Source: Deltaproteobacteria bacterium (GTDB lineage Bacteria; Chloroflexota; Dehalococcoidia; Dehalococcoidales; BS750m-G39). Taken from it: DNA of 64,000 nucleotides. Of the stretch, positions 4,776 to 44,494 are shown in pieces. Location of the stretch: assembly GCA_030603275.1 (NCBI GenBank), contig JAUVYB010000006.1:5205-69204 (forward strand). The letters are read 5' to 3'. The notes under the pieces are model-generated. The model was given only the letters and a program-made list of their open reading frames with translations. It was not told the origin of the DNA and made no database searches. The position numbers and the translations under genes were made by a program. Every line of letters starts with the position of its first letter. Position 1 is the first letter of the stretch.

Positions 4776-4820
4776 AGTGGGGTTAATTATTCTCTATTTG
4801 GGTGGGGCAAAAAGGGAGTC

Positions 4821-4896
4821 AAAGAGGGGCGTCAGCCCCTCTTTCTTCTCCTTCCCCCTCTCCAAGATTGGAGAGGGGGATACAGGGGGTGAGGTT
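4821..4896. repeat. twin-hairpin intergenic repeat (family B), copy 1
   Basis: Hairpin 1: AAAGAGGGGC (4821-4830), loop GTCA, GCCCCTCTTT (4835-4844), a perfect 10-bp stem. Hairpin 2: TCCCCCTCTCC (4853-4863), loop AAGATT, GGAGAGGGGGA (4870-4880), a perfect 11-bp stem, followed by TACAGGGGGTGAGG. The same architecture recurs at 41211-41288. Confidence 0.8.
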
Positions 4897-4972
4897 GACA
4901 ATAATAACTTCTATTGAACAATAACCCTACTAGGAGTAAAATAAACCTAACGAACACCACAGGAGAGTCAAA

Positions 4973-17060: not shown

Positions 17061-17320
17061 AAAGAGAACTGTTAAAAAGGGGGAGGAGTGGAGGCCACCG
17101 AAGGGGGGATAGAGGGGGGCGAAGGTCTCAAAGCTACATTACATATAGAAGGGTGACGCCCTGAGAGCCATTATCAGGGGCTTAAACAGCAAAACCCATC
17201 CAGATACAGGTAGCCCTATAGGGCAAAGCCCTGATGATACTACAGGGGGTCTTGGATAGGACAAAGGTGTGTATCTGGGAAGCAAAAGAGAGTTTTAGAG
17301 GGGGCTAAAGGGAGTTAAAA

Positions 17321-17355
17321 AGAGGCGGAGCCTCTTTTGGGCGGGAGGGTGGGAA
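17321..17355. repeat. family A right-arm-only copy
   Basis: AGAGGCGGAGCCTCTTTTGGGCGGGAGGGTGGGAA: a hairpin (AGAGGC/GCCTCT) followed by GGGCGGGAGGGTGGG (17339-17353). Confidence 0.7.
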
Positions 17356-17427
17356 GCAAGACAACTGAAAACAGAGGGGATACAGGGGATAGGGTCACCT
17401 TATCCCCAATCAAAACTGCTAAAAGGA

Positions 17428-35867: not shown

Positions 35868-36869
35868 TTGACGATGGCCAAGATATATTATGATAAAGAT
35901 TGCAACCTGAAGCTGCTCGATGGTAAAACAGTGGGTATTGTCGGCTACGGCAGCCAGGGGCACGCCCACGCCCAGAACCTGAGGGACAGCGGCTGCCAGG
36001 TGATAGTGGGCGAAGCCAAGGGAACGCCGGGCTGGAAGAGCGCCCAAAAGGCCGGATTTAAGGTGATGACCGCCGCCGAGATGGCCAGGGAAGCCGATAT
36101 TATTGTAATGCTGGCGCCGGATAACCTGCACCGCGATATTTACTACGGGGCAATCGAAAAGGGGCTGGCCAAGGGCAAGATGCTGATGTTCGCCCACGGC
36201 TTTAATATTCATTACGGGCAGGTGGTGCCCCCGGCTAACATCGATGTGGCCATGATAGCCCCCAAGTGCCCCGGCCATATACTGAGACAGCTTTACACCG
36301 AGGGCGCCGGCTCGCCGGCCATAGTAGCCGTGCACCAGGACGCTTCGGGCAAGGCCCTGGCTACCGCACTGGCCTACGCCGAGGGCATCGGCTGCGGGCG
36401 GGCGGGGGTGATTGAGACCACCTTTGCCGAGGAGACCGAAACCGACCTCTTCGGTGAACAAACGGTGCTATGCGGGGGTATTTCATCGCTGATAAAGGCG
36501 GGGTTCGAGACCCTTGTGGAGGCGGGCTACCAGCCGGAGATAGCCTACTTTGAGGTCTGTAACGAGCTTAAGCTCATCACTGACCTGATTTACCAGGGGG
36601 GCCTGAGCTATATGCGCTATTCGGTTAGCGATACCGCCGAGTACGGCGACTACACGCGGGGACCCAGAGTTATTGATGAAATGGTCAAAGAAGAGATGAT
36701 GGCCATCCTGGCCGAGATTCAGGACGGCACTTTCGCCAAGGAATGGATACTGGAAAACCAGGCCGGGCGCCCGGTGTATAACGCCCTGAAGAGGATGGAC
36801 GAGGAGCACCCGCTTGAGCTGGTGGGGCGAGAGCTGAGGGAGATGATGCCCTGGCTCAAGAAGAAATAG
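35868..36869 (+). CDS. ilvC: ketol-acid reductoisomerase (class I)
   Basis: 333 aa; motifs [17 protein letters not shown] and the LFGEQ..LCGG region. Confidence 0.97.
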
Positions 36870-36964
36870 TAAATAATTTAATTGGTAACTAAAATGCCTA
36901 AACATATGACCACGCAATATAACGAAGTTCCCTTTTCTGGGGGAAATAAACTCATCCTTATTAG

Positions 36965-36988
36965 CCCCTCTCCAATATAGGGGAGGGG
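36965..36988. repeat. family B hairpin, partial copy
   Basis: CCCCTCTCC (36965-36973), loop AATATA, GGGGAGGGG (36980-36988): 9 bp including one G-U pair. A second hairpin, CGGCGGGGAAAA/TTTTCCCTGCCG, follows. Confidence 0.6.
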
Positions 36989-37065
36989 TAAACGCGGCCG
37001 GCGGGGAAAAGATTTTCCCTGCCGATAAATCCACTTAATGAAGTTTTTTCTCCCAGGAGGATACT

Positions 37066-38583
37066 ATGAATAAAGTAATAATCTTTGATACCACACTAAG
37101 GGACGGGGAACAAGCGGCGGGGGGTACGTTAAATGTCCAGGAGAAGCTGGGTATAGCCAGACAACTGGAGAGGCTGGGTGTTGACGTTATCGAGGCCGGT
37201 TTTCCCATCAGTTCGCCGGGCGATTTTGAGGCGGTAAGCCTCATCGCCAAAGAGGTGCGCAAGCCGGTAATCTGCGGGCTGGCCCGGGCTCACCCCGACG
37301 ATATAGACCGTGCCTGGGAGGCCGTCAAAGAGGCGGCTCACCCCCGGATACACGTGTTCCTTTCCTCTTCGGATATACACCTGGGTTATCAGTTGAAAAA
37401 AAGCCGTGAGGAGGTGCTGAACACCGCCCGGGATATGGTGGCACGGGCCAAGAAGTACACCGACGACATCGAGTTTTCCCCGATGGACGCCAGCCGCACC
37501 GAGCCCGAATATATCTACCAGATACTGGAGGCGGTGATTGACGCCGGAGCCACCATGGTGAATATCCCCGATACCGTGGGCTATGCTATCCCCGGCGAGT
37601 TCGGCAACCTGATTGAGGGCATTATCAACAATGTGCCTAATATCAAGAAGGCCGTTATCAGCGTCCACTGCCACAATGACCTGGGGCTGGCCGTGGCCAA
37701 CAGCCTGGAGGCGGTGAGGCGGGGAGCCCGGCAGGTGGAGTGTACCGTCAACGGCATCGGGGAGAGGGCGGGCAACGCCTCCATGGAGGAAATCGTCATG
37801 GCCATCAAGACCCGCCAGGACTTTTTCCACCTGGCCACTAATGTTAATACCAACCAGATATATAAAGCCAGCCGACTGGTCAGCGACCTGACCGGCTTTG
37901 TCGTTCAGCCCAATAAGGCCATCATCGGGGCCAACGCCTTCCGGCATGAGTCTGGAATCCACCAGGACGGCGTCATCAAGATGCCGATAACCTACGAGAT
38001 AATGGACCCTAAAACGGTGGGCATACCCTCCAGCAGTCTGGTGCTGGGCAAGCTCAGCGGGCGGCACGCCTTCAAAGAGCACCTGGCCGAGTTGGGCTAC
38101 AGCCTGAACGAGGAGGACTTCAACCGTGCCTTTACCGCCTTTAAAGAGCTGGCCGATAAAAAGAAGGGAGTCACCGATAGGGACATCGAGTCCCTGATCG
38201 CCGAGGAGCAGCGCACCATATCGGAGGCGTATCACCTTGACCGGGTACAGGTCTCCTGCGGCGACAGGGGTATCCCCACCGCCGCCGTCAGGCTTATCGG
38301 TCCGGAGGGTGAGGCGCTGGCTGATGCCGCCCTGGGCACCGGCCCCGTTGACGCCGTGTACAAGGCTATCAATAAAATAGTGAACGTGCCCAACGAGCTT
38401 GCCGAATTTACCGTTAAATCGGTAACCGAGGGTATTGACGCCATCGGGGAGGTGCTGGTAAGAATAGAGAGCGAGGGCATAACCTACACCGGGCGGGGCG
38501 CCGATACCGACATCATCGTTGCCAGCGCCAAAGCCTACATGAATGCCCTTAACCGGCTGTTAGCCACTAAGAAAGGAAGCTGA
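37066..38583 (+). CDS. leuA: 2-isopropylmalate synthase
   Basis: 505 aa. It has DTTLRDGEQ, the [12 protein letters not shown] motif and a C-terminal LeuA dimerisation/regulatory domain. Confidence 0.9.
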
Positions 38584-38585
38584 TA

Positions 38586-39839
38586 TTGACTCTAGTCGAG
38601 AAAATACTGGCCGAACATAGCGATAACAAAGGGGTAAGCCCTGGAGAGTTCATCAACGTCAGGGTAGACCTGGTTATGTCTAACGACATTACCGCCCCTA
38701 TCGCCATCAGGGAGTTTAAGCGGCTGGGGGTAGACCGGGTCTTTGACCCCGGCAAGGTGGTAATGGTGCCCGACCACTTCGTGCCCAATAAGGACATCGC
38801 CTCCGCCGAGCAGGCCAAGCTTATGCGGGAGTTCGCCCACGAGCAGGGGATAATCTACTTTGAATTGGGTGAGATGGGTATTGAGCACGTGCTTCTGCCC
38901 GAGCAGGGGCTGGTGCTGCCGGGGGAGGTGGTCATCGGGGCTGATTCCCACACCTGCACCTACGGGGCTCTGGGCGCCTTTGCCACCGGCATGGGCTCGA
39001 CCGATATCGCCATGGCCATGGCCACCGGTGATATATGGATGAAGGTGCCCCACACCATCAGGCTGGTTTACCACGGAAATCTGGGGGAATGGGTGGGCGG
39101 TAAAGACCTTATACTGCATACCATCGGCGATATCGGTGTTGACGGCGCCCTCTATTCGGCAATTGAGTTTACCGGCGAGGCGATAGAAGCCCTGTCCATG
39201 GACGGCCGGTTTACCATGGCTAATATGGCCATTGAAGCCGGGGCTAAAGCCGGCATTTTCGGGGTGGATAACAAGACGCAACTTTATGTAAAATCAAGGG
39301 CCGAGCGCTCCTACCTGGTATACGAGCCGGATAACGGTGCGGAATACTCAAATGTTATTGAGTATGATGTCTCCGATATAGAGCCCCAGGTTGCCCTACC
39401 CCACTCGCCGGCTAATGCCAGGCCGGTGAGCCAGGTGGGGAACATAGAAATTAACCAGGCAGTAATCGGCAGCTGCACCAACGGCCGCATCGAGGACATG
39501 AGAATTGCTGCCCAGATTTTGAAAGGACGGAAAATACACCCGGGGGTGCGGTGCATTATCATCCCCGGCTCACAACAGGTGTACCTAGACGCCCTGGCCG
39601 AGGGCATGCTGGGAGTATTTATCCGGGCCGGGGCGGTGGTCAGCACCCCCACCTGCGGTCCCTGCCTGGGTGGACATATGGGAGTTCTGGCCGATGGCGA
39701 GAGGTGCGTCTCTACCACCAACCGCAACTTCGTCGGCAGAATGGGCAGCACCAAGGCAGAAGTCTATCTGGCCAATCCGGCGGTAGCAGCGGCCAGCGCG
39801 GTAATGGGTAAGATTGCCAGCCCGGAGGAGATTTTATAA
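38586..39839 (+). CDS. leuC: 3-isopropylmalate dehydratase large subunit
   Basis: 417 aa, TTG start. Aconitase-family Cys ligands are present (SCTNGR, TCGPCLG). The N-terminus MTLVEKIL is typical. Confidence 0.95.
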
Positions 39840-39891
39840 AAACCAAAAAAAGTAAGGGATTTTGAGAGGAGCTTGGTAGAGGAATAATGCT

Positions 39892-41190
39892 ATGGGGTGG
39901 CTCATTGTTTTTGGCATTATACTTGCCATTTGGTTCATTACTTGGCTGAGCAACAGGCTATCTAACCTACGGGGGATGGCAAAGAAGTATGCTGAATTGA
40001 AGCCGAAATTTGACAGCTTGAATACTTATAAAGACGAATTGGAACTCACAAACAAAGAATTAAAGCACTGGGCTGATAAATATCATGAGATGAAATCGGT
40101 GTTCGATAGGTTAGATAAATACAAGGGTGAATTAGAGTTAAAAGAGTCCCGACTAAGAAATAAAGAAGAAACATTTGAGACATTAGTCAAAGAAAAAACA
40201 GCTGGTTTTCCTTGGTTAACTTGGGCTTATGATAATTACTATGAACTTGAGGACCTAAAGATGGAGGCCTATCTTGAAAGCAAACCCCATCCAGCAATAA
40301 AAGCCGCCGAACACCATAAACAGATTTCTAAAGAGCGTCGTGAAGCTGAAAAAGCAGCAAGGTTGGCAAATTACCTCTTGGATTATTGTCGTTATCTAGC
40401 TCCTTGGTTAGATGAATACATAGGCTTGGAAGCTGATGAGTTAGACGAAATTATAAAAGAGATACACTCAGCGTGGGAGAAGAAAGAGAAGGAGTTTGAT
40501 GAGGAAGTAAAACGACATTTTGGGCCTAAATATGAAGGACTTACGCCGACCGAGAAATTGCAGAAAAAACTGGATTGGTATTGGGGGAAACCTAATAAAT
40601 CCAATTGGCAAATTGGAAGGGATTACGAGAGATATAGCGGGTATTTATATGAGATAAAAGGCTGGAATGTCAACTATCACGGTAAGAAGGGATTTGAAGA
40701 CTTGGGGCGGGACTTGGTTTGCAAAAAAGCTAATGCTGTAGAGATAATCCAGTGTAAGCGCTGGGCGCAAGAGAAAATAATCCATGAAAAGCATATCTAT
40801 TATTTATTTGGCACCACAGTTGAATATTTTATTGAAAACTTTAGAGGCGAGGACTTACAATTAGCCCTATTTCCTAGCCTTGCTCGAAAGAGAAATGTAA
40901 TCCCTAAATTGGTTACTACGATAGATGTTTCCCCAAAAGCTGAACAAGTAGCGAAAGTGCTTGGGGTGGTAATAGAAAAAGTACCGTCGGAGCCCTATCC
41001 CTCGGTAAAATGCAATGTAGCTAGAAGGACGGGGGAGAAAATCTTTCACCTTCCTTTCGACCAGCAGTATGATACCATATTAATAGAGGAAGAAAGACTA
41101 GAATGCTATGTTGAAACCGTTGCGGAGGCAGAGGCCCTTGGATTTCGGCACGCATACCGCTGGAAGGGCGAAGTTGCGCAAATCCCATAA
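39892..41190 (+). CDS. membrane-tethered coiled-coil protein with Mrr-like PD-(D/E)xK restriction-endonuclease domain
   Basis: 432 aa. The N-terminal TM segment is WLIVFGIILAIWFITWL. It has a long K/E-rich coiled coil with an internal duplication (KFDSLNTYKDELELTNKEL / VFDRLDKYKGELELKESRL). The nuclease core reads GWNVNYHGKKGFEDLGRDLVCKK..AVEIIQCKRW. The gene is strongly AT-rich against its flanks. Confidence 0.75.
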   Translation: MGWLIVFGIILAIWFITWLSNRLSNLRGMAKKYAELKPKFDSLNTYKDELELTNKELKHWADKYHEMKSVFDRLDKYKGELELKESRLRNKEETFETLVKEKTAGFPWLTWAYDNYYELEDLKMEAYLESKPHPAIKAAEHHKQISKERREAEKAARLANYLLDYCRYLAPWLDEYIGLEADELDEIIKEIHSAWEKKEKEFDEEVKRHFGPKYEGLTPTEKLQKKLDWYWGKPNKSNWQIGRDYERYSGYLYEIKGWNVNYHGKKGFEDLGRDLVCKKANAVEIIQCKRWAQEKIIHEKHIYYLFGTTVEYFIENFRGEDLQLALFPSLARKRNVIPKLVTTIDVSPKAEQVAKVLGVVIEKVPSEPYPSVKCNVARRTGEKIFHLPFDQQYDTILIEEERLECYVETVAEAEALGFRHAYRWKGEVAQIP

Positions 41191-41210
41191 ACACACTGCA
41201 AAGGGGATTG

Positions 41211-41288
41211 AAAGGGGCGAAGCCCCTTTAGAAAAATAATCTTCCCTCTCCCCTTTCTAAGGGGAGAGGGATAAAGGGTGAGGGGTTC
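41211..41288. repeat. twin-hairpin intergenic repeat (family B), copy 2
   Basis: AAAGGGGC-GAA-GCCCCTTT (41211-41229), then CCCTCTCCCC (41244-41253), loop TTTCTAA, GGGGAGAGGG (41261-41270), then ATAAAGGGTGAGGGG. The order and spacing match 4821-4896. Confidence 0.8.
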
Positions 41289-41293
41289 CTAGA

Positions 41294-41794
41294 ATGCTAA
41301 AAGGTACGGTCCATAAATACGGGGCTAATGTAGATACCGACGCTATCATACCGGCGCGCTACCTTAACGTATCTGACCCGGCGGAGTTGGCCAATCACTG
41401 CATGGAAGATATTGACGAGGACTTCGTTAAGCGGGTCAAGCGGGGGGATATAATGATGGCCGCCACCAACTTCGGCTGCGGCTCATCAAGGGAGCACGCC
41501 CCACTGGCTATCAAGGCGGCGGAAATTTCCTGTATAATAGCTAAAAGCTTCGCCCGCATCTTCTTCCGCAATGCCATAAATATTGGCTTACCACTACTGG
41601 AGTGTGACCAGGCGGTGGATAAGACCGAGGCGGGCGATACTCTGGAAGTTGACCTGTCCAACGGCAGGATAAAAAACCTGACCAATGGCATGGAGTTTGA
41701 GGCAAAAGCCTACCCCGATTTTATGGCGGAGCTTATCTCCGCCGGCGGGCTGGTTGAGTACACCAAAAAAAGACTAGATAGCAGGAGAGTTTAG
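41294..41794 (+). CDS. leuD: 3-isopropylmalate dehydratase small subunit
   Basis: 166 aa, short archaeal/Dehalococcoidia-type LeuD ([26 protein letters not shown]). Confidence 0.95.
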
Positions 41795-42889
41795 ATGCAA
41801 TTTGAACTGGTAGTTTTACCCGGTGACGGCGTTGGTCCCGATGTTACCACCGAAGGAATCAAGGTGCTGGAGGCGGTAGGCAAGAGGTTCGGCCACCGCT
41901 TTAAACTGCACTATGGACTGGTGGGTGGGGTTGCCATTGACAAAGAGGGGACAGCCCTGTCTGATAATACCGTGATGATGTGCCAGGACGCAGATGCGGT
42001 ACTGCTGGGAGCGGTGGGCGGCCCCAAGTGGGACGACCCCCTAGCTAAAGTCCACCCCGAAGACGGGCTGCTGGCACTGCGCAAGGAGCTGGGGCTTTTC
42101 GCCAACCTGCGCCCGGTCAAGGTATCCCCGGTTCTGGTTGACTCAACCAACCTTAAGCCGGATGTCATCCGGGGGGTAGACCTTGTCTTTGTCCGGGAGC
42201 TTACCGGAGGTCTCTACTTCGCCCGCCCCAAGAGACAGTGGAAGACATCCCGGGGGAGGCGGGCTACCGATTCCATGACCTACTCCGAGCATGAGATTGA
42301 GCGCATCGTCCGGGTGGGCTTTGAGCTGGCCAGGGGCCGGCGCCAGAAATTGACCTCGGTGGACAAAGCCAATGTGCTTGAGGCCTCCCGCCTCTGGCGG
42401 CAGGTAACCATGGAGGTCGCCCCGCAATACCCCGATGTCGAGTTGGACCACATGCTGGTTGATGCCTGTTCCATGCGGCTGATTCAGAACCCGACCTATT
42501 TCGATGTGCTGGTTACCGAAAACACCTTCGGCGATATTCTCACCGACGAGGCCTCGATGCTGGCCGGCTCTATGGGAATGCTGCCCTCGGCCAGTCTGGC
42601 CGGGGTACCGCGGGAGGGAGTTAATATATTCGGTATGTATGAGCCGATTCACGGCAGCGCCCCCCGCCGCGCCGGACTTGACATGGCTAACCCCATCGCT
42701 ATTATCCTCAGCGTGGCCATGATGCTCCGCTATTCCTTCGGCCTGGCTGAAGAGGCGCAGACCGTTGAGACGGCGGTTGACAAGATGTTAAATGAGGGTT
42801 ACCGTACCTATGATATAATGGACGAAGGCAAAACAAAGGTGGGGACAAAGGGGATGGGAGACATAATAACCGAGAAGGTGGAAGGCTAG
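41795..42889 (+). CDS. leuB: 3-isopropylmalate dehydrogenase
   Basis: 364 aa; motifs NLRP, VRELTGG and [15 protein letters not shown]. Confidence 0.97.
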
Positions 42890-42892
42890 AAA

Positions 42893-44494
42893 TTGTCTAA
42901 AGTGCAACTTTACGATACCACACTGCGGGATGGCACGCAGAAAGAGGGCGTTTCTTTCTCCGTGGTTGATAAGCTTAATATTGCCCAGAAACTGGATGAG
43001 CTGGGTATCCACTTCATCGAAGGAGGCTACCCCGGCTCCAATCCCAAGGATGACGAGTTTTTCCAGAAGGCAAAGAAGCTGACTCTGGCCAACTCGGTGC
43101 TGGTTGCTTTTGGCAATACCAGGCGAGCTAAAGTTAAAGCAGAAGCAGATACCAACCTCCAAGCCCTGGCCAATGCCGGGGTGAAAGTGGCTACCATTGT
43201 CGGCAAGAGTTCCGATTTGCAGGTTACCAGGGTTCTGAAAACCACTCTGGAGGAAAACCTGAGCATGATTGCCGATTCTGTAGCCTATCTCAAGTCAAAA
43301 GGGCTTTCGGTTATCTTTGATGCCGAGCATTTCTTTGACGGCTTTAAGCATAACCCCGATTATAGCCTGCGCTGTTTAACCGCCGCTGCCGAAGCCGGGG
43401 CAAGCTGCCTGGCGCTCTGTGATACCAACGGAGGTACGCTTCCTGGCGAAATAGCCGACGCTATCGGGGCGGTTAAAAAAGTGACCTCGGTACCCCTGGG
43501 AATTCATGTTCATGATGATAGCGGTCTGGCGGTAGCCAACAGCCTGGCGGCGGTAAACGCTGGAGTAACTCAGGTACAGGGTACCATCAATGGCTACGGC
43601 GAGCGCTGCGGCAACGCTAACCTGTGTTCTATTATCCCCAACCTGAAACTCAAAATGGGCATCGATTGCATTACTGATGAGCAATTAAGCAGGCTGGCCG
43701 AGGTATCCCACTTTGTCAATGAGGCAGCCAATCTCGCTCCCGATACCTCTTTGCCCTATGTCGGAGCCAGTGCCTTTAGCCATAAGGGCGGGCTTCATGT
43801 TTCCGCCACGATGAGGTGGAATGAGAGCTATCAGCATATAGACCCGTCCAAAGTTGGCAACCGGCAAAAAGTGGTGGTTTCCGAGCTATCAGGCAAGGGA
43901 AACATCTTATACAAGGCGAAGGAACTGGGACTGAACTTGCCCCCGGAAGGCAAGGAGGCAAAAAAGCTGGTGGAGCAGGTCAAGCTGATGGAGAGCCGCG
44001 GCTTCCAGTATGAGAACGCCGAAGCCTCCTTTGAGCTGCTCATACAGCGGGCCAGACCGGATTACCAGTCTCCCTTTGAACTGGTTGACTTTATGGTGGT
44101 GGTGGAGAAGAGGCGGCGTGCGCCCGTGAAGGGAAGCCCGGAGGAGATACTATCCGAGGCGATGGTTAAGGTTAGGGTGGGCAAGGAGGTAATGCACACC
44201 GTGGCCGAGGGTAACGGCCCGGTTAACGCTCTGGACCAGGCGCTGCGCAAATCGCTGCTGAGGTTTTACCCCAGCATAGCTGAAGTAAGACTGGTCGACT
44301 ATAAGGTACGCATCCTTGAGGAAACCGTGGGCACCGGCGCCCAGGTTCGGGTACTTATCGAGTCCACCGACGGGGTTGACGAGTGGCACACCGTCGGCGG
44401 CTCAACCAACATCATTGAGGCCAGCTGGCTGGCTTTAGCCGACAGCCTTGAATACTGGCTCCTAAAACAAAAAGGAGGTGGTAAAGATGGATGA
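42893..44494 (+). CDS. cimA: (R)-citramalate synthase (LeuA-like type 2)
   Basis: 533 aa, TTG start. MSKVQLYDTTLRDGTQKEGVSFSV...GGYPGSNPKD matches the CimA-type subfamily rather than LeuA. A second LeuA paralog at the end of the leu block fits the citramalate route to isoleucine. Confidence 0.82.
   Translation: MSKVQLYDTTLRDGTQKEGVSFSVVDKLNIAQKLDELGIHFIEGGYPGSNPKDDEFFQKAKKLTLANSVLVAFGNTRRAKVKAEADTNLQALANAGVKVATIVGKSSDLQVTRVLKTTLEENLSMIADSVAYLKSKGLSVIFDAEHFFDGFKHNPDYSLRCLTAAAEAGASCLALCDTNGGTLPGEIADAIGAVKKVTSVPLGIHVHDDSGLAVANSLAAVNAGVTQVQGTINGYGERCGNANLCSIIPNLKLKMGIDCITDEQLSRLAEVSHFVNEAANLAPDTSLPYVGASAFSHKGGLHVSATMRWNESYQHIDPSKVGNRQKVVVSELSGKGNILYKAKELGLNLPPEGKEAKKLVEQVKLMESRGFQYENAEASFELLIQRARPDYQSPFELVDFMVVVEKRRRAPVKGSPEEILSEAMVKVRVGKEVMHTVAEGNGPVNALDQALRKSLLRFYPSIAEVRLVDYKVRILEETVGTGAQVRVLIESTDGVDEWHTVGGSTNIIEASWLALADSLEYWLLKQKGGGKDG

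Follow-up and report, generated by a model that had tools for sequence, protein, structure and literature searches.

Why does a gene for a predicted nuclease lie between leuC and leuD, which encode the two subunits of one enzyme, in an uncultured Dehalococcoidales bacterium? We analyzed the 64-kb stretch of DNA that holds this locus (the window) and refer to the gene as X. All support for the readings of X given here is computational. A single gene on the same strand does separate leuC from leuD, as the original prediction from the bare sequence had it (Table 1). For the borders, the leuC orthologue in L081 (L numbers denote relatives' loci) has PF00330 Aconitase on record; for leuD, 581 relatives were retrieved, and PF00694 Aconitase_C is recorded for its orthologues. 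The G+C counts first used to argue that the insert differs from its flanks were exact, at 19/60 for positions 40021-40080 and 41/60 for 39601-39660. The insert is the sole 1.2-kb stretch below 0.45 GC in the window (minimum 0.395, median 0.535), and the GC3 of X is 0.41 vs 0.70 for leuC and 0.63 for leuD. X is compositionally foreign.

Table 1. Features of the leuC-leuD slot and of X (positions in the window)
Feature	Position	Strand	Basis
leuC (3-isopropylmalate dehydratase large subunit, 417 aa), left border of slot	38586-39839	+	ORF list
3' relic of ATL/MGMT-like gene, reads VRDFERSLVEE*	39853-39888	+	relatives' intact genes, DNA matches
X, membrane-tethered Mrr-like nuclease gene (predicted), 432 aa	39892-41190	+	ORF list, Pfam, dN/dS
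X: N-terminal TM helix, about residues 2-21	39895-39954	+	Kyte-Doolittle
X: K/E-rich hypervariable coiled-coil stalk, residues 25-103, with diverged 31-aa duplication	39964-40200	+	AlphaFold model, composition
X: conserved helical domain, residues 104-235; motifs GFPWL, KERREAEKAA, LAPWL	40201-40596	+	family alignment, structure model
X: Mrr/MspJI-type PD-(D/E)xK nuclease domain	40603-40986	+	Pfam, AlphaFold, Foldseek, invariance
X: predicted catalytic residue E246		+	invariance
X: predicted catalytic residue D274	40711-40713	+	invariance
X: predicted catalytic residue Q287	40750-40752	+	invariance
X: predicted catalytic residue K289	40756-40758	+	invariance
X: C-terminal 'sunset'-like domain (KCNV...KIFHLPFDQQYD...EAEALGFRHAYRW)	41005-41163	+	NCBIfam NF051437, phrog_21287
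REP-like twin-hairpin element, right border of variable segment, directly upstream of leuD	41203-41290	+	covariance model R1
leuD (small subunit, 166 aa), right border of slot	41294-41794	+	ORF list

The many lysines and glutamates of the protein do not cause this low GC, as GC3 is likewise low and is constant across hosts. As an alternative to transfer, the constant AT-richness could also reflect selection, for example for low translation of a toxic enzyme. The spacer upstream of X measures 52 nt, and no promoter or terminator signal around the gene exceeded shuffled expectation; X, lying on the operon's own strand, may be carried by the operon's transcription, as proposed. The statement that no integrase or transposase adjoins X holds, and synteny with L081 is unbroken for 6 kb on either side.

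If X were a private, recent insertion, then relatives should have an empty junction. Instead, the identical slot holds homologues at 66-91% identity over aligned residues in no fewer than 13 further contigs of Dehalococcoidia (carriers include L081, L083, L085-L087, L090, L091, L100, L104, L247, L249 and L251), and the LeuC proteins of these contigs are 78-92% identical to that of the window. A contig look-up with the exact X protein gave no record. The foreign composition of X is borne out, but a private, recent insertion is not. Nor do relatives universally carry X with native composition: only some have the gene, and wherever it occurs its base composition is foreign to the host. The premise that leuC and leuD normally abut holds outside the clade and in sister clades, with gaps of 6-40 bp, but fails in this subclade: here most slots are filled, and their size ranges from 0 to 2.9 kb. 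In relatives it also takes a methyltransferase and PNPOx-like, GNAT, RidA-like and MBL genes, and in L083 and L251 X is followed by a gene for a small GIY-YIG nuclease. In L001, the closest relative, a Mrr_cat gene precedes the same REP-like element; BLASTP shows no similarity between this gene and X, and we rejected it as a homologue. Part of the neighboring cargo (the GIY-YIG gene, a Zn-ribbon gene and the Mrr_cat gene of L001) is AT-rich with the same foreign signature, and the 'empty' sites differ widely in sequence. The variability of the leuC-leuD slot is specific to this lineage, the alternative cargos are many, and X recurs there, amid cargo turnover, in one subclade of Dehalococcoidales.

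The borders of the variable segment had been noted as loosely similar sequences flanking both sides of the insert. They are not insertion repeats: on the left stands the remnant of a deleted ATL/MGMT-like gene and on the right part of a dispersed REP-like element, and we rejected a target-site duplication on these grounds. Intact genes of 150-173 aa, ending in ...PPKVKDFEKALVEV*, lie immediately upstream of X in L083, L086, L087 and L104, a 150-aa gene has the same place in L251, and the spacer DNA of the window matches the 3' ends of such genes in L005, L086 and L104. The L083 protein matches Pfam DNA_binding_1 at E 2e-5 and 24.8 bits, which is under the cut-off of 27. On the right, the twin hairpin reported downstream of X was recovered by covariance model R1 at 102.9 bits. 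Its minimum free energy is -42.7 kcal/mol (z -2.6), 18/25 pairs show compensatory changes, and the repeat is dispersed on both strands through many intergenic regions. The copy beside X is 98% identical to the L001 copy, which follows an unrelated gene. An Rfam scan of 34-46 kb of the window gave no match. We also rejected an integron cassette, given that no GTTRRRY core was seen by eye, that the syntenic flanks are free of integrases and that dispersed copies of the hairpin occur on either strand.

We then considered the protein itself. Its N-terminal TM helix, part of the original description, is well supported, with a mean Kyte-Doolittle value of 2.27 for residues 1-19 (the 19-mer maximum) against 0.82 for the next best segment. 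Basic residues follow the helix, so that by the positive-inside rule the bulk of X is predicted to be cytoplasmic. In the AlphaFold model, the stalk region is one long helix (residues 9-103); its K+E fraction is 0.34, and the nucleotide identity between L083 and L251 is only 45-57% here, compared to 94-97% in the flanks of the two. The coiled coil, once put at some 230 aa, spans only about 80, since residues 104-235 are a conserved helical domain. An internal duplication within it is present, as proposed, but diverged, with 11/31 residues identical between the copies; TRF detected no repeat at the DNA level, and the 401-aa homologues are short by exactly 31 aa. The helical domain has invariant or near-invariant columns in the alignment and helices at 107-232 in the AlphaFold model, and had no genuine family match in Pfam, NCBIfam or PDB sequences. 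The isolated C-terminal tail matches NF051437 at 21.4 bits (E 1.9e-4), under the cut-off of 27, which is exceeded in 3/4 viral homologues (28.3-29.6 bits). The tail also matches phrog_21287, a 'membrane associated protein' (E 7e-5), and the AlphaFold model has low confidence over it. A literature search on the 'sunset domain' and on membrane-anchored Mrr-like nucleases found nothing relevant.

The central claim, that X has a Mrr-like PD-(D/E)xK core, is upheld by Pfam, the AlphaFold model and Foldseek. The GRDLV...EIIQCKRW motif is there, and E246, D274, Q287, C288 and K289 are invariant among 41 relatives. X itself scores 21.1 bits with Pfam Mrr_cat, barely above the cut-off of 21; 25/41 relatives match this profile (best E 2.6e-9) and 31/41 match Mrr_cat_2. 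The model has an alpha/beta fold at residues 238-363, with strands at 259-263, 274-279 and 282-289 and flanking helices. Against the PDB, Foldseek retrieved EndoMS (5gkj), MspJI (4f0p) and AF1548 (1y88) at E 2.5e-4 to 7.5e-4 and probability 1.0; it also matched Cdn1, again at probability 1.0, and phage 'restriction endonucleases'. A sequence-profile search of the PDB gave no genuine match. By profile and fold, X thus qualifies as a putative nuclease of the known Mrr_cat subgroup, and its predicted active site is conserved within a modeled fold of Mrr/MspJI type. With dN/dS at 0.04-0.2, the gene is under purifying selection.

How, then, does X compare with known Mrr and type IV enzymes? It shares the catalytic fold and the D...QxK variant of PD-(D/E)xK with the catalytic domains of MspJI and AspBHI and with the Mrr-like AF1548, and like type IV systems it has no partner methyltransferase gene in its slot. 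By analogy with the PD-(D/E)xK class, X is predicted to cleave DNA in a metal-dependent manner, and it may, like type IV enzymes, act on modified DNA. Unlike them, it has no Mrr_N winged-helix domain (no Pfam match in X or the 41 relatives) and no SRA-like reader, and has instead the TM anchor, coiled coil, helical domain and 'sunset'-like tail. A membrane anchor is an unusual trait for restriction-type enzymes.

As the original prediction called X possibly defence-related, we searched PADLOC-DB v2.0.0 with it. No defence-protein model matched, the sole match being a spurious coiled-coil one to LmuB (E 0.0055), and a gut-phage homologue of X had no match there either. The wider family comprises about 960 clusters at 50% identity; it is uncharacterised and has no PADLOC model, and database names for its members are only 'restriction endonuclease' or 'hypothetical'. 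Among 80 IMG/VR loci, an HTH+Peptidase_S24 (CI-like) repressor lies within two genes of the homologue in 55, usually directly upstream and on the same strand; a tyrosine or serine recombinase lies within three genes in 31, usually downstream; and ImmA/IrrE is nearby in 11. The order is that of temperate-phage lysogeny modules (cI-like repressor, sometimes ImmA, X homologue, integrase), as seen with homologues only 31-41% identical to X. Such distant homologues occur in prophages and plasmids; among GenBank phages, tblastn found no match for X and one weak match for a viral homologue. In 20 metagenome loci, a small gene encoding a TM segment and Zn_ribbon_Top1 lies directly upstream of the homologue, which there mostly matches only from about residue 60-100 on, an arrangement that fits DNA handling at the membrane. 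Among closer homologues outside the leu slot (66-74% identical), those of L094 and L096 have housekeeping genes on both sides, and that of L093 (70% identical) precedes the PADLOC candidate system PDC-M41 A+B; a homologue in L183 lies near AbiD. The Dehalococcoidia copies sit in a biosynthetic operon rather than a defence island, and the copy in the window is not in a prophage.

Collectively, these observations are consistent with a model in which X would be transcribed by read-through of the ilv-leu operon and would act as a stand-alone innate-immunity or exclusion nuclease, cutting incoming phage or plasmid DNA at the cytoplasmic face of the membrane. As no methyltransferase gene accompanies X in the slot, it may, in the type IV manner, recognize modification or another feature that marks DNA as foreign. 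Because the distant homologues sit in temperate-phage lysogeny modules, and because the position between repressor and integrase is the classic place of superinfection-exclusion genes, a role in defence or exclusion is suggested, to which we give slightly less than an even chance. Sie proteins described so far, which are small membrane proteins or lipoproteins, are not known to contain a nuclease domain. X would differ from them in having one, and the window copy in lying in the leu operon rather than a prophage. The distant homologues resemble the lactococcal Sie2009-type genes, Ltp of S. thermophilus and RexAB of lambda in being membrane-anchored and in holding the same place between repressor and integrase; in lactococcal phages, the genes at this place include membrane-associated Sie proteins (PMC7693887). 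The whole statement, that X is a functional membrane-anchored DNA endonuclease, exchanged between genomes and acting in innate immunity or exclusion, seems to us evenly balanced between right and wrong.

A broader version would make the family a new kind of defence or exclusion enzyme, expressed from lysogeny modules mainly in gut Clostridia such as Oscillospiraceae and cutting incoming DNA at the membrane, with X in Dehalococcoidales a cassette that is exchanged laterally and kept in a REP-punctuated slot, where it is transcribed with the essential leuCD operon. This we put forward tentatively, as somewhat more apt to fail than to hold. If it is a defence or exclusion nuclease, then the family would add to defence catalogues a widespread architecture that they lack (TM anchor, variable coiled coil, Mrr core, 'sunset' tail), and it would suggest how a nuclease could bring about superinfection exclusion at the membrane.

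The lysogeny-module position suits an abortive-infection or toxin effector equally well. Here, tethered X would be held inactive until infection or a membrane disturbance is sensed, upon which the cell's own DNA would be degraded and the cell would die. Stand-alone nucleases without a methyltransferase are common as abortive-infection effectors, which counts for this reading, as do the hypervariable stalk, a frequent feature of sensor or specificity modules, and the homologues found near AbiD (L183) and beside a HicB antitoxin-like gene (L091). However, the neighborhoods compared have no conserved gene for a cognate antitoxin or sensor beside X, and a toxin constitutively co-transcribed in an essential operon would need tight control, of which there is no sign. 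We consider this reading unlikely, though the best of the alternatives.

Somewhat less probable again is a role in DNA repair or recombination, with X a membrane-associated, RmuC-like nuclease whose possible partners are the neighboring lesion-binding protein of ATL/MGMT type and the small GIY-YIG nuclease found after X in two contigs. RmuC (YigN), a DNA recombination protein, has an N-terminal membrane segment, a long coiled coil and a C-terminal PD-(D/E)xK domain, and X has a similar overall layout. Every leu-slot copy of X lies directly downstream of an ATL-like gene or its relic, and the repair nuclease EndoMS/NucS is the best Foldseek match. The fold class of RmuC is listed in PMC3424549. 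X belongs to another nuclease subfamily, with extra domains and foreign composition, and the RmuC profile PF02646 matched neither X (E up to 1) nor the 41 relatives (E up to 0.01). Moreover, the ATL-like gene has native GC, occurs in many genomes without X and was deleted in the window while X was retained, and the distant homologues in lysogeny modules never adjoin ATL-like genes. Foreign composition and patchy carriage are also atypical of core repair genes.

If X had descended with its hosts, then its divergence should follow that of LeuC. Between L083 and L251, LeuC is 98.1% identical while the X core is only 86% and the X N-terminus 49% identical; between L081 and L086, LeuC is 81.5% and X 90.5% identical. 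The identities of the X core and LeuC correlate at r = 0.5, and X-bearing and X-lacking genomes are intermixed in the LeuC tree. The GC3 of X stays at 0.38-0.43, near 0.40, though that of host leuC spans 0.49-0.84. These pairwise identities and dS values are incongruent with LeuC, and we rejected strict vertical descent; the history of X is decoupled from that of leuC and the host. A gene long resident in the clade, passed down vertically, repeatedly lost and kept at low GC by selection (for example, to limit translation), neither recent nor mobile, would fit the constant position after the ATL-like gene or relic, as from a single ancestral insertion, the age of the alleles (dS 0.3 to above 2) and the partly ameliorated L100 copy (GC3 0.60). 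It is nonetheless improbable: identities fail to track LeuC, GC3 is fixed over the host range, and the AT-rich neighboring cargo is equally foreign in signature.

The evidence instead favors exchange of X between related genomes, which would occur by homologous recombination with leuC or the ATL-like gene as left anchor and the REP-like element plus leuD as right anchor. Taken alone, the structural and evolutionary parts of the explanation seem to us very probable. A selfish homing-type nuclease, which would cut the empty leuC-leuD junction of naive genomes and enter it when the break is repaired from an allele that carries X, would account for the strong locus fidelity in Dehalococcoidia, the exchange of alleles independently of the host and the other nuclease genes that share the slot (GIY-YIG and the Mrr_cat gene of L001), but seems highly improbable for an enzyme with a membrane anchor and long stalk, with homologues of 66-74% identity elsewhere and distant ones in prophages and plasmids, and in a slot that takes non-nuclease cargo too and whose empty versions vary so widely.

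Exchange by flanking homology would also fit the likeness of the slot to chromosomal accessory and defence hotspots, which share its single position, alternative cargos and lack of an integrase or transposase. In contrast to these, the leuC-leuD slot lies inside an operon, between the subunit genes of one enzyme, is small and is punctuated by REP-like twin hairpins. Stand-alone predicted nucleases are common in variable regions. As Dehalococcoidia genomes are small and streamlined, where they keep their variable genes is of interest, and here an intra-operon junction has served as a long-lived site of accessory-gene turnover.

X, the 432-aa ORF between leuC and leuD, belongs to a single series of plus-strand genes running from ilvC to a second HMGL/LeuA-like gene. 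LeuD relatives assign the window to an uncultured Dehalococcoidales, with locus L001 as the best match (89% identical). X is the GC minimum of the 64-kb window (0.395 over 1.2 kb, against a median of 0.535) and its sole 1.2-kb stretch below 0.45. The G+C counts behind the original prediction, which described an AT-rich Mrr-like nuclease gene inserted here, were exact on recount (19/60 and 41/60). The base composition of X is foreign. Amino-acid content as the cause of its low GC is ruled out by GC3, which is 0.41 in X versus 0.70 in leuC and 0.63 in leuD. Across hosts, X keeps a GC3 of 0.38-0.43 against leuC values of 0.49-0.84, with partial amelioration only in locus L100 (0.60), and this near-constancy bears out the claim of foreign composition. 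Mobile-element genes are absent nearby, in keeping with the reported lack of an integrase or transposase. A rival reading is that X is an old resident gene whose AT-richness is kept by selection. dN/dS between X alleles is 0.04-0.2, near the LeuC value, as for a functional gene under selection.

Features of the window discussed in the text
Feature	Position	Strand	Basis
Twin-hairpin copy	4815-4899	+	covariance model, 52 bits
Twin-hairpin copy	17311-17384	+	covariance model, 24 bits
ilvC	35868-36869	+	ORF
Twin-hairpin copy, weak	36946-37030	-	covariance model
leuA	37066-38583	+	ORF
leuC	38586-39839	+	ORF
ATL-like gene relic, 36 nt (VRDFERSLVEE-stop)	39853-39888		3' end of ATL-like gene
X, 432 aa	39892-41190	+	ORF
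Twin-hairpin copy beside leuD	41203-41290	+	identity to L001 copy
leuD	41294-41794	+	ORF
leuB	41795-42889	+	ORF
HMGL/LeuA-like gene, second in series	42893-44494	+	ORF

The PD-(D/E)xK core proposed for X is supported by several lines of evidence. Pfam Mrr_cat matches residues 243-309 at the gathering threshold (21.1 bits, cut-off 21), and among 41 relatives of X, 25 match Mrr_cat (best E 2.6e-9) and 31 match Mrr_cat_2. Residues E246, D274, Q287, C288 and K289 are invariant across relatives down to 48% identity; D...QxK is the form that this motif takes in Mrr and MspJI. In an AlphaFold model built on an alignment of relatives (mean pLDDT 72), residues 238-363 form an alpha/beta domain. Foldseek matched this domain in the PDB to EndoMS/NucS (5gkj), MspJI (4f0p), Mrr-like AF1548 (1y88), Cdn1 and AspBHI (E 2.5e-4 to 3e-2, probability 1.0 for most), and in BFVD it gave matches to phage 'restriction endonucleases'. 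Mrr_cat and 1y88 are grouped together within PD-(D/E)xK (PMC3424549).

The predicted N-terminal TM helix is likewise seen, as residues 1-19 are strongly hydrophobic. Basic residues follow, and we therefore predict a cytoplasmic nuclease domain. The K/E-rich coiled coil, put at about 230 aa in the original prediction, covers residues 25-103; its internal duplication holds up as a diverged 31-aa repeat (11/31 identical), and 401-aa homologues lack those 31 residues. The model shows TM and coiled coil as a single long helix (residues 9-103), followed by a helical bundle (107-232) corresponding to a conserved helical domain (104-235) that had no family match. The C-terminal tail is modelled poorly and matches the NCBIfam 42-aa 'sunset' domain below threshold (21.4 bits); three viral homologues exceed it (28.3-29.6 bits). 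We found no literature on 'sunset'. PADLOC, proposed with DefenseFinder as a check, models neither X nor a viral homologue. X is a real, selected gene for a predicted membrane-anchored Mrr-type nuclease, and its predicted architecture is a new variant among Mrr/PD-(D/E)xK nucleases.

Across 80 genome loci retrieved with LeuD, none of which carried X, the leuC-leuD gap is mostly 6-150 bp outside Dehalococcoidia and 9-40 bp in several Dehalococcoidia lineages. One Dehalococcoidia subclade differs, with gaps of 260-1220 bp without X and up to 2.9 kb with it. The cargo there varies: SAM-methyltransferase-like genes, named from sequence alone (L003, L006); PNPOx-like genes (L004, L007, L010, L014, L086); an ATL/MGMT-like gene of 150-173 aa (L005, L007, L008, L010, L028, L073 and others); an MBL-fold gene (L025); and GNAT plus RidA-like genes (L026). 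The nearest relative, L001 (LeuB 93%, CimA 92%), carries a different AT-rich gene at this position, which hits Mrr_cat (L001:3-743, E 4e-9, GC 0.41) but has no detectable similarity to X. The junction is thus a lineage-specific, clade-specific variable site in which X recurs patchily, and we count this long-lived cargo slot among the most interesting points. L001 (JAUWGI010000008.1) is labelled 'Deltaproteobacteria bacterium', which looks wrong for its Dehalococcoidia-like ilv-leu locus. Three anammox genomes (Candidatus Brocadia; L061, L064, L066) represent another lineage with a filled junction, leuC and leuD lying ~4.35 kb apart. The leuA-leuC spacing is 2 bp in the window (38583/38586) versus ~460-650 bp in L003, L004, L006, L010, L086 and others, the L086 spacer containing REP-like copies; several junctions of the ilv-leu operon therefore vary in length.

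Close homologues of X (66-91% identity over aligned residues) occupy the same slot in 13 loci (L081, L082, L083, L085, L086, L087, L090, L091, L100, L104, L247, L249, L251), which argues against a one-off insertion. The original observation is confirmed, and its interpretation is supported in part. Some slots hold extra genes, ATL-like 5' of X, or GIY-YIG, HicB-like or Zn_ribbon_Top1 around it. In many related Dehalococcoidia the leuC-leuD junction contains the intact ATL-like gene, which has native GC; its protein matches Pfam DNA_binding_1 below threshold. The left 'similar sequence' of the original prediction is a relic of this gene, since its DNA and its translation both match the 3' end of the ATL-like genes that immediately precede X in other loci. 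It follows that the ancestral order was leuC, ATL-like gene, X, leuD, and that the window lineage later lost the ATL-like gene by deletion. X might alternatively be a repair or recombination factor alongside the ATL-like protein. The L091 copy of X (L091:2817-4349) is 510 aa long and contains the GFPWLA...KERREAE module twice. The L104 copy (L104:2271-3478) is broken into two ORFs (252 and 156 aa), either by a frameshift (pseudogene) or by assembly error.

The history of X is decoupled from that of its hosts. LeuC and X-core identities correlate at r = 0.5: L083 and L251 share 98.1% in LeuC, 86% in the X core and 49% in the X N-terminus, and L081 and L086 share 81.5% in LeuC and 90.5% over all of X. 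Genomes with and without X are intermingled in the occupied-slot subclade of a LeuC neighbour-joining tree (no bootstrap). We read this as one old insertion 3' of the ATL-like gene, after which X was lost or replaced in some genomes and its alleles were exchanged laterally via conserved flanks; a homing-type selfish nuclease is a rival account. The coiled-coil stalk (L083:6085-6385) diverges sharply between the near-identical L083 and L251 (nucleotide identity 94-97% in flanks, 83-94% in the X core, 45-57% in the coiled-coil segment), and is either hypervariable or replaced by recombination.

The right 'similar sequence' is part of a dispersed REP-like twin hairpin rather than an insertion repeat. 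The 88-nt copy beside leuD shares 98% identity with the stretch preceding leuD in L001, which there follows the unrelated Mrr_cat gene, and 87-93% with copies in L003, L088 and L083. A covariance model from seven copies found the element numerous, on both strands, in ilv-leu intergenic regions of relatives (L012, L081, L083, L086, L091, L104, L251). The ~85-nt element comprises a hairpin GGGGC-GAA-GCCCC, an A-rich spacer and a 13-bp hairpin CCCTCTCCCC/GGGGAGAGGG. Its predicted structure is well supported: compensatory changes occur at 18/25 base pairs and 95.5% of cells are paired, reached by 0/500 shuffles, in an alignment that was fitted to the model and so favours structure; the folding energy of the leuD-adjacent copy is -42.7 kcal/mol (z = -2.6). 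Rfam gave no match. Twin hairpins separate successive cargo genes in L083, L091 and L104, which only suggests that they may serve as recombination joints.

A profile search with the X family gave 961 clusters (50% identity) at E < 1e-30, a large uncharacterised family named in source records only 'restriction endonuclease', 'HJR/Mrr/RecB family endonuclease' or hypothetical. Members come from, among others, Chloroflexota, Elusimicrobia, Oscillospiraceae, Anaerotruncus and Hymenobacter plasmids. Relatives are also encoded on 133 IMG/VR viral-contig stretches, of which the 80 best loci were analysed; the homologues there are 31-41% identical to X, and the five whose sequences were read completely have the same architecture. 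In 55 of these 80 loci an HTH+Peptidase_S24 (CI/LexA-like) repressor lies no more than two genes away, most often immediately upstream and co-oriented. A tyrosine or serine recombinase lies no more than three genes away in 31, mostly on the downstream side, and 11 carry an ImmA/IrrE peptidase. This context is a lysogeny module, and the strength of the family's link to it is also among the most interesting points. The region between integrase and repressor in lactococcal phages is known to encode, among others, membrane-associated superinfection-exclusion proteins (PMC7693887). All functional claims on X are predictions from sequence: operon read-through would transcribe it (promoter-like and terminator-like matches around it were no more than chance), flanking homology would allow its exchange, and its product may act in defence or exclusion against incoming DNA; an abortive-infection toxin is a rival reading.

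In 20 metagenome loci, a small TM + double Zn_ribbon_Top1 gene (e.g. L090:730-1197, L093:5434-5790) lies directly upstream of an X homologue that mostly matches only from about residue 60-100 on, so the membrane anchor can apparently reside on a separate protein. In P0099 the zinc ribbon is fused to X. The arrangement resembles a membrane-anchor and DNA-binding module that occurs either split or fused. One 70%-identical homologue is followed directly by the PADLOC candidate system PDC-M41 A+B (L093:7368-8941), whose B protein matches Pfam DUF5131, and AbiD lies near another homologue. Other 66-70%-identical homologues stand singly among housekeeping genes.
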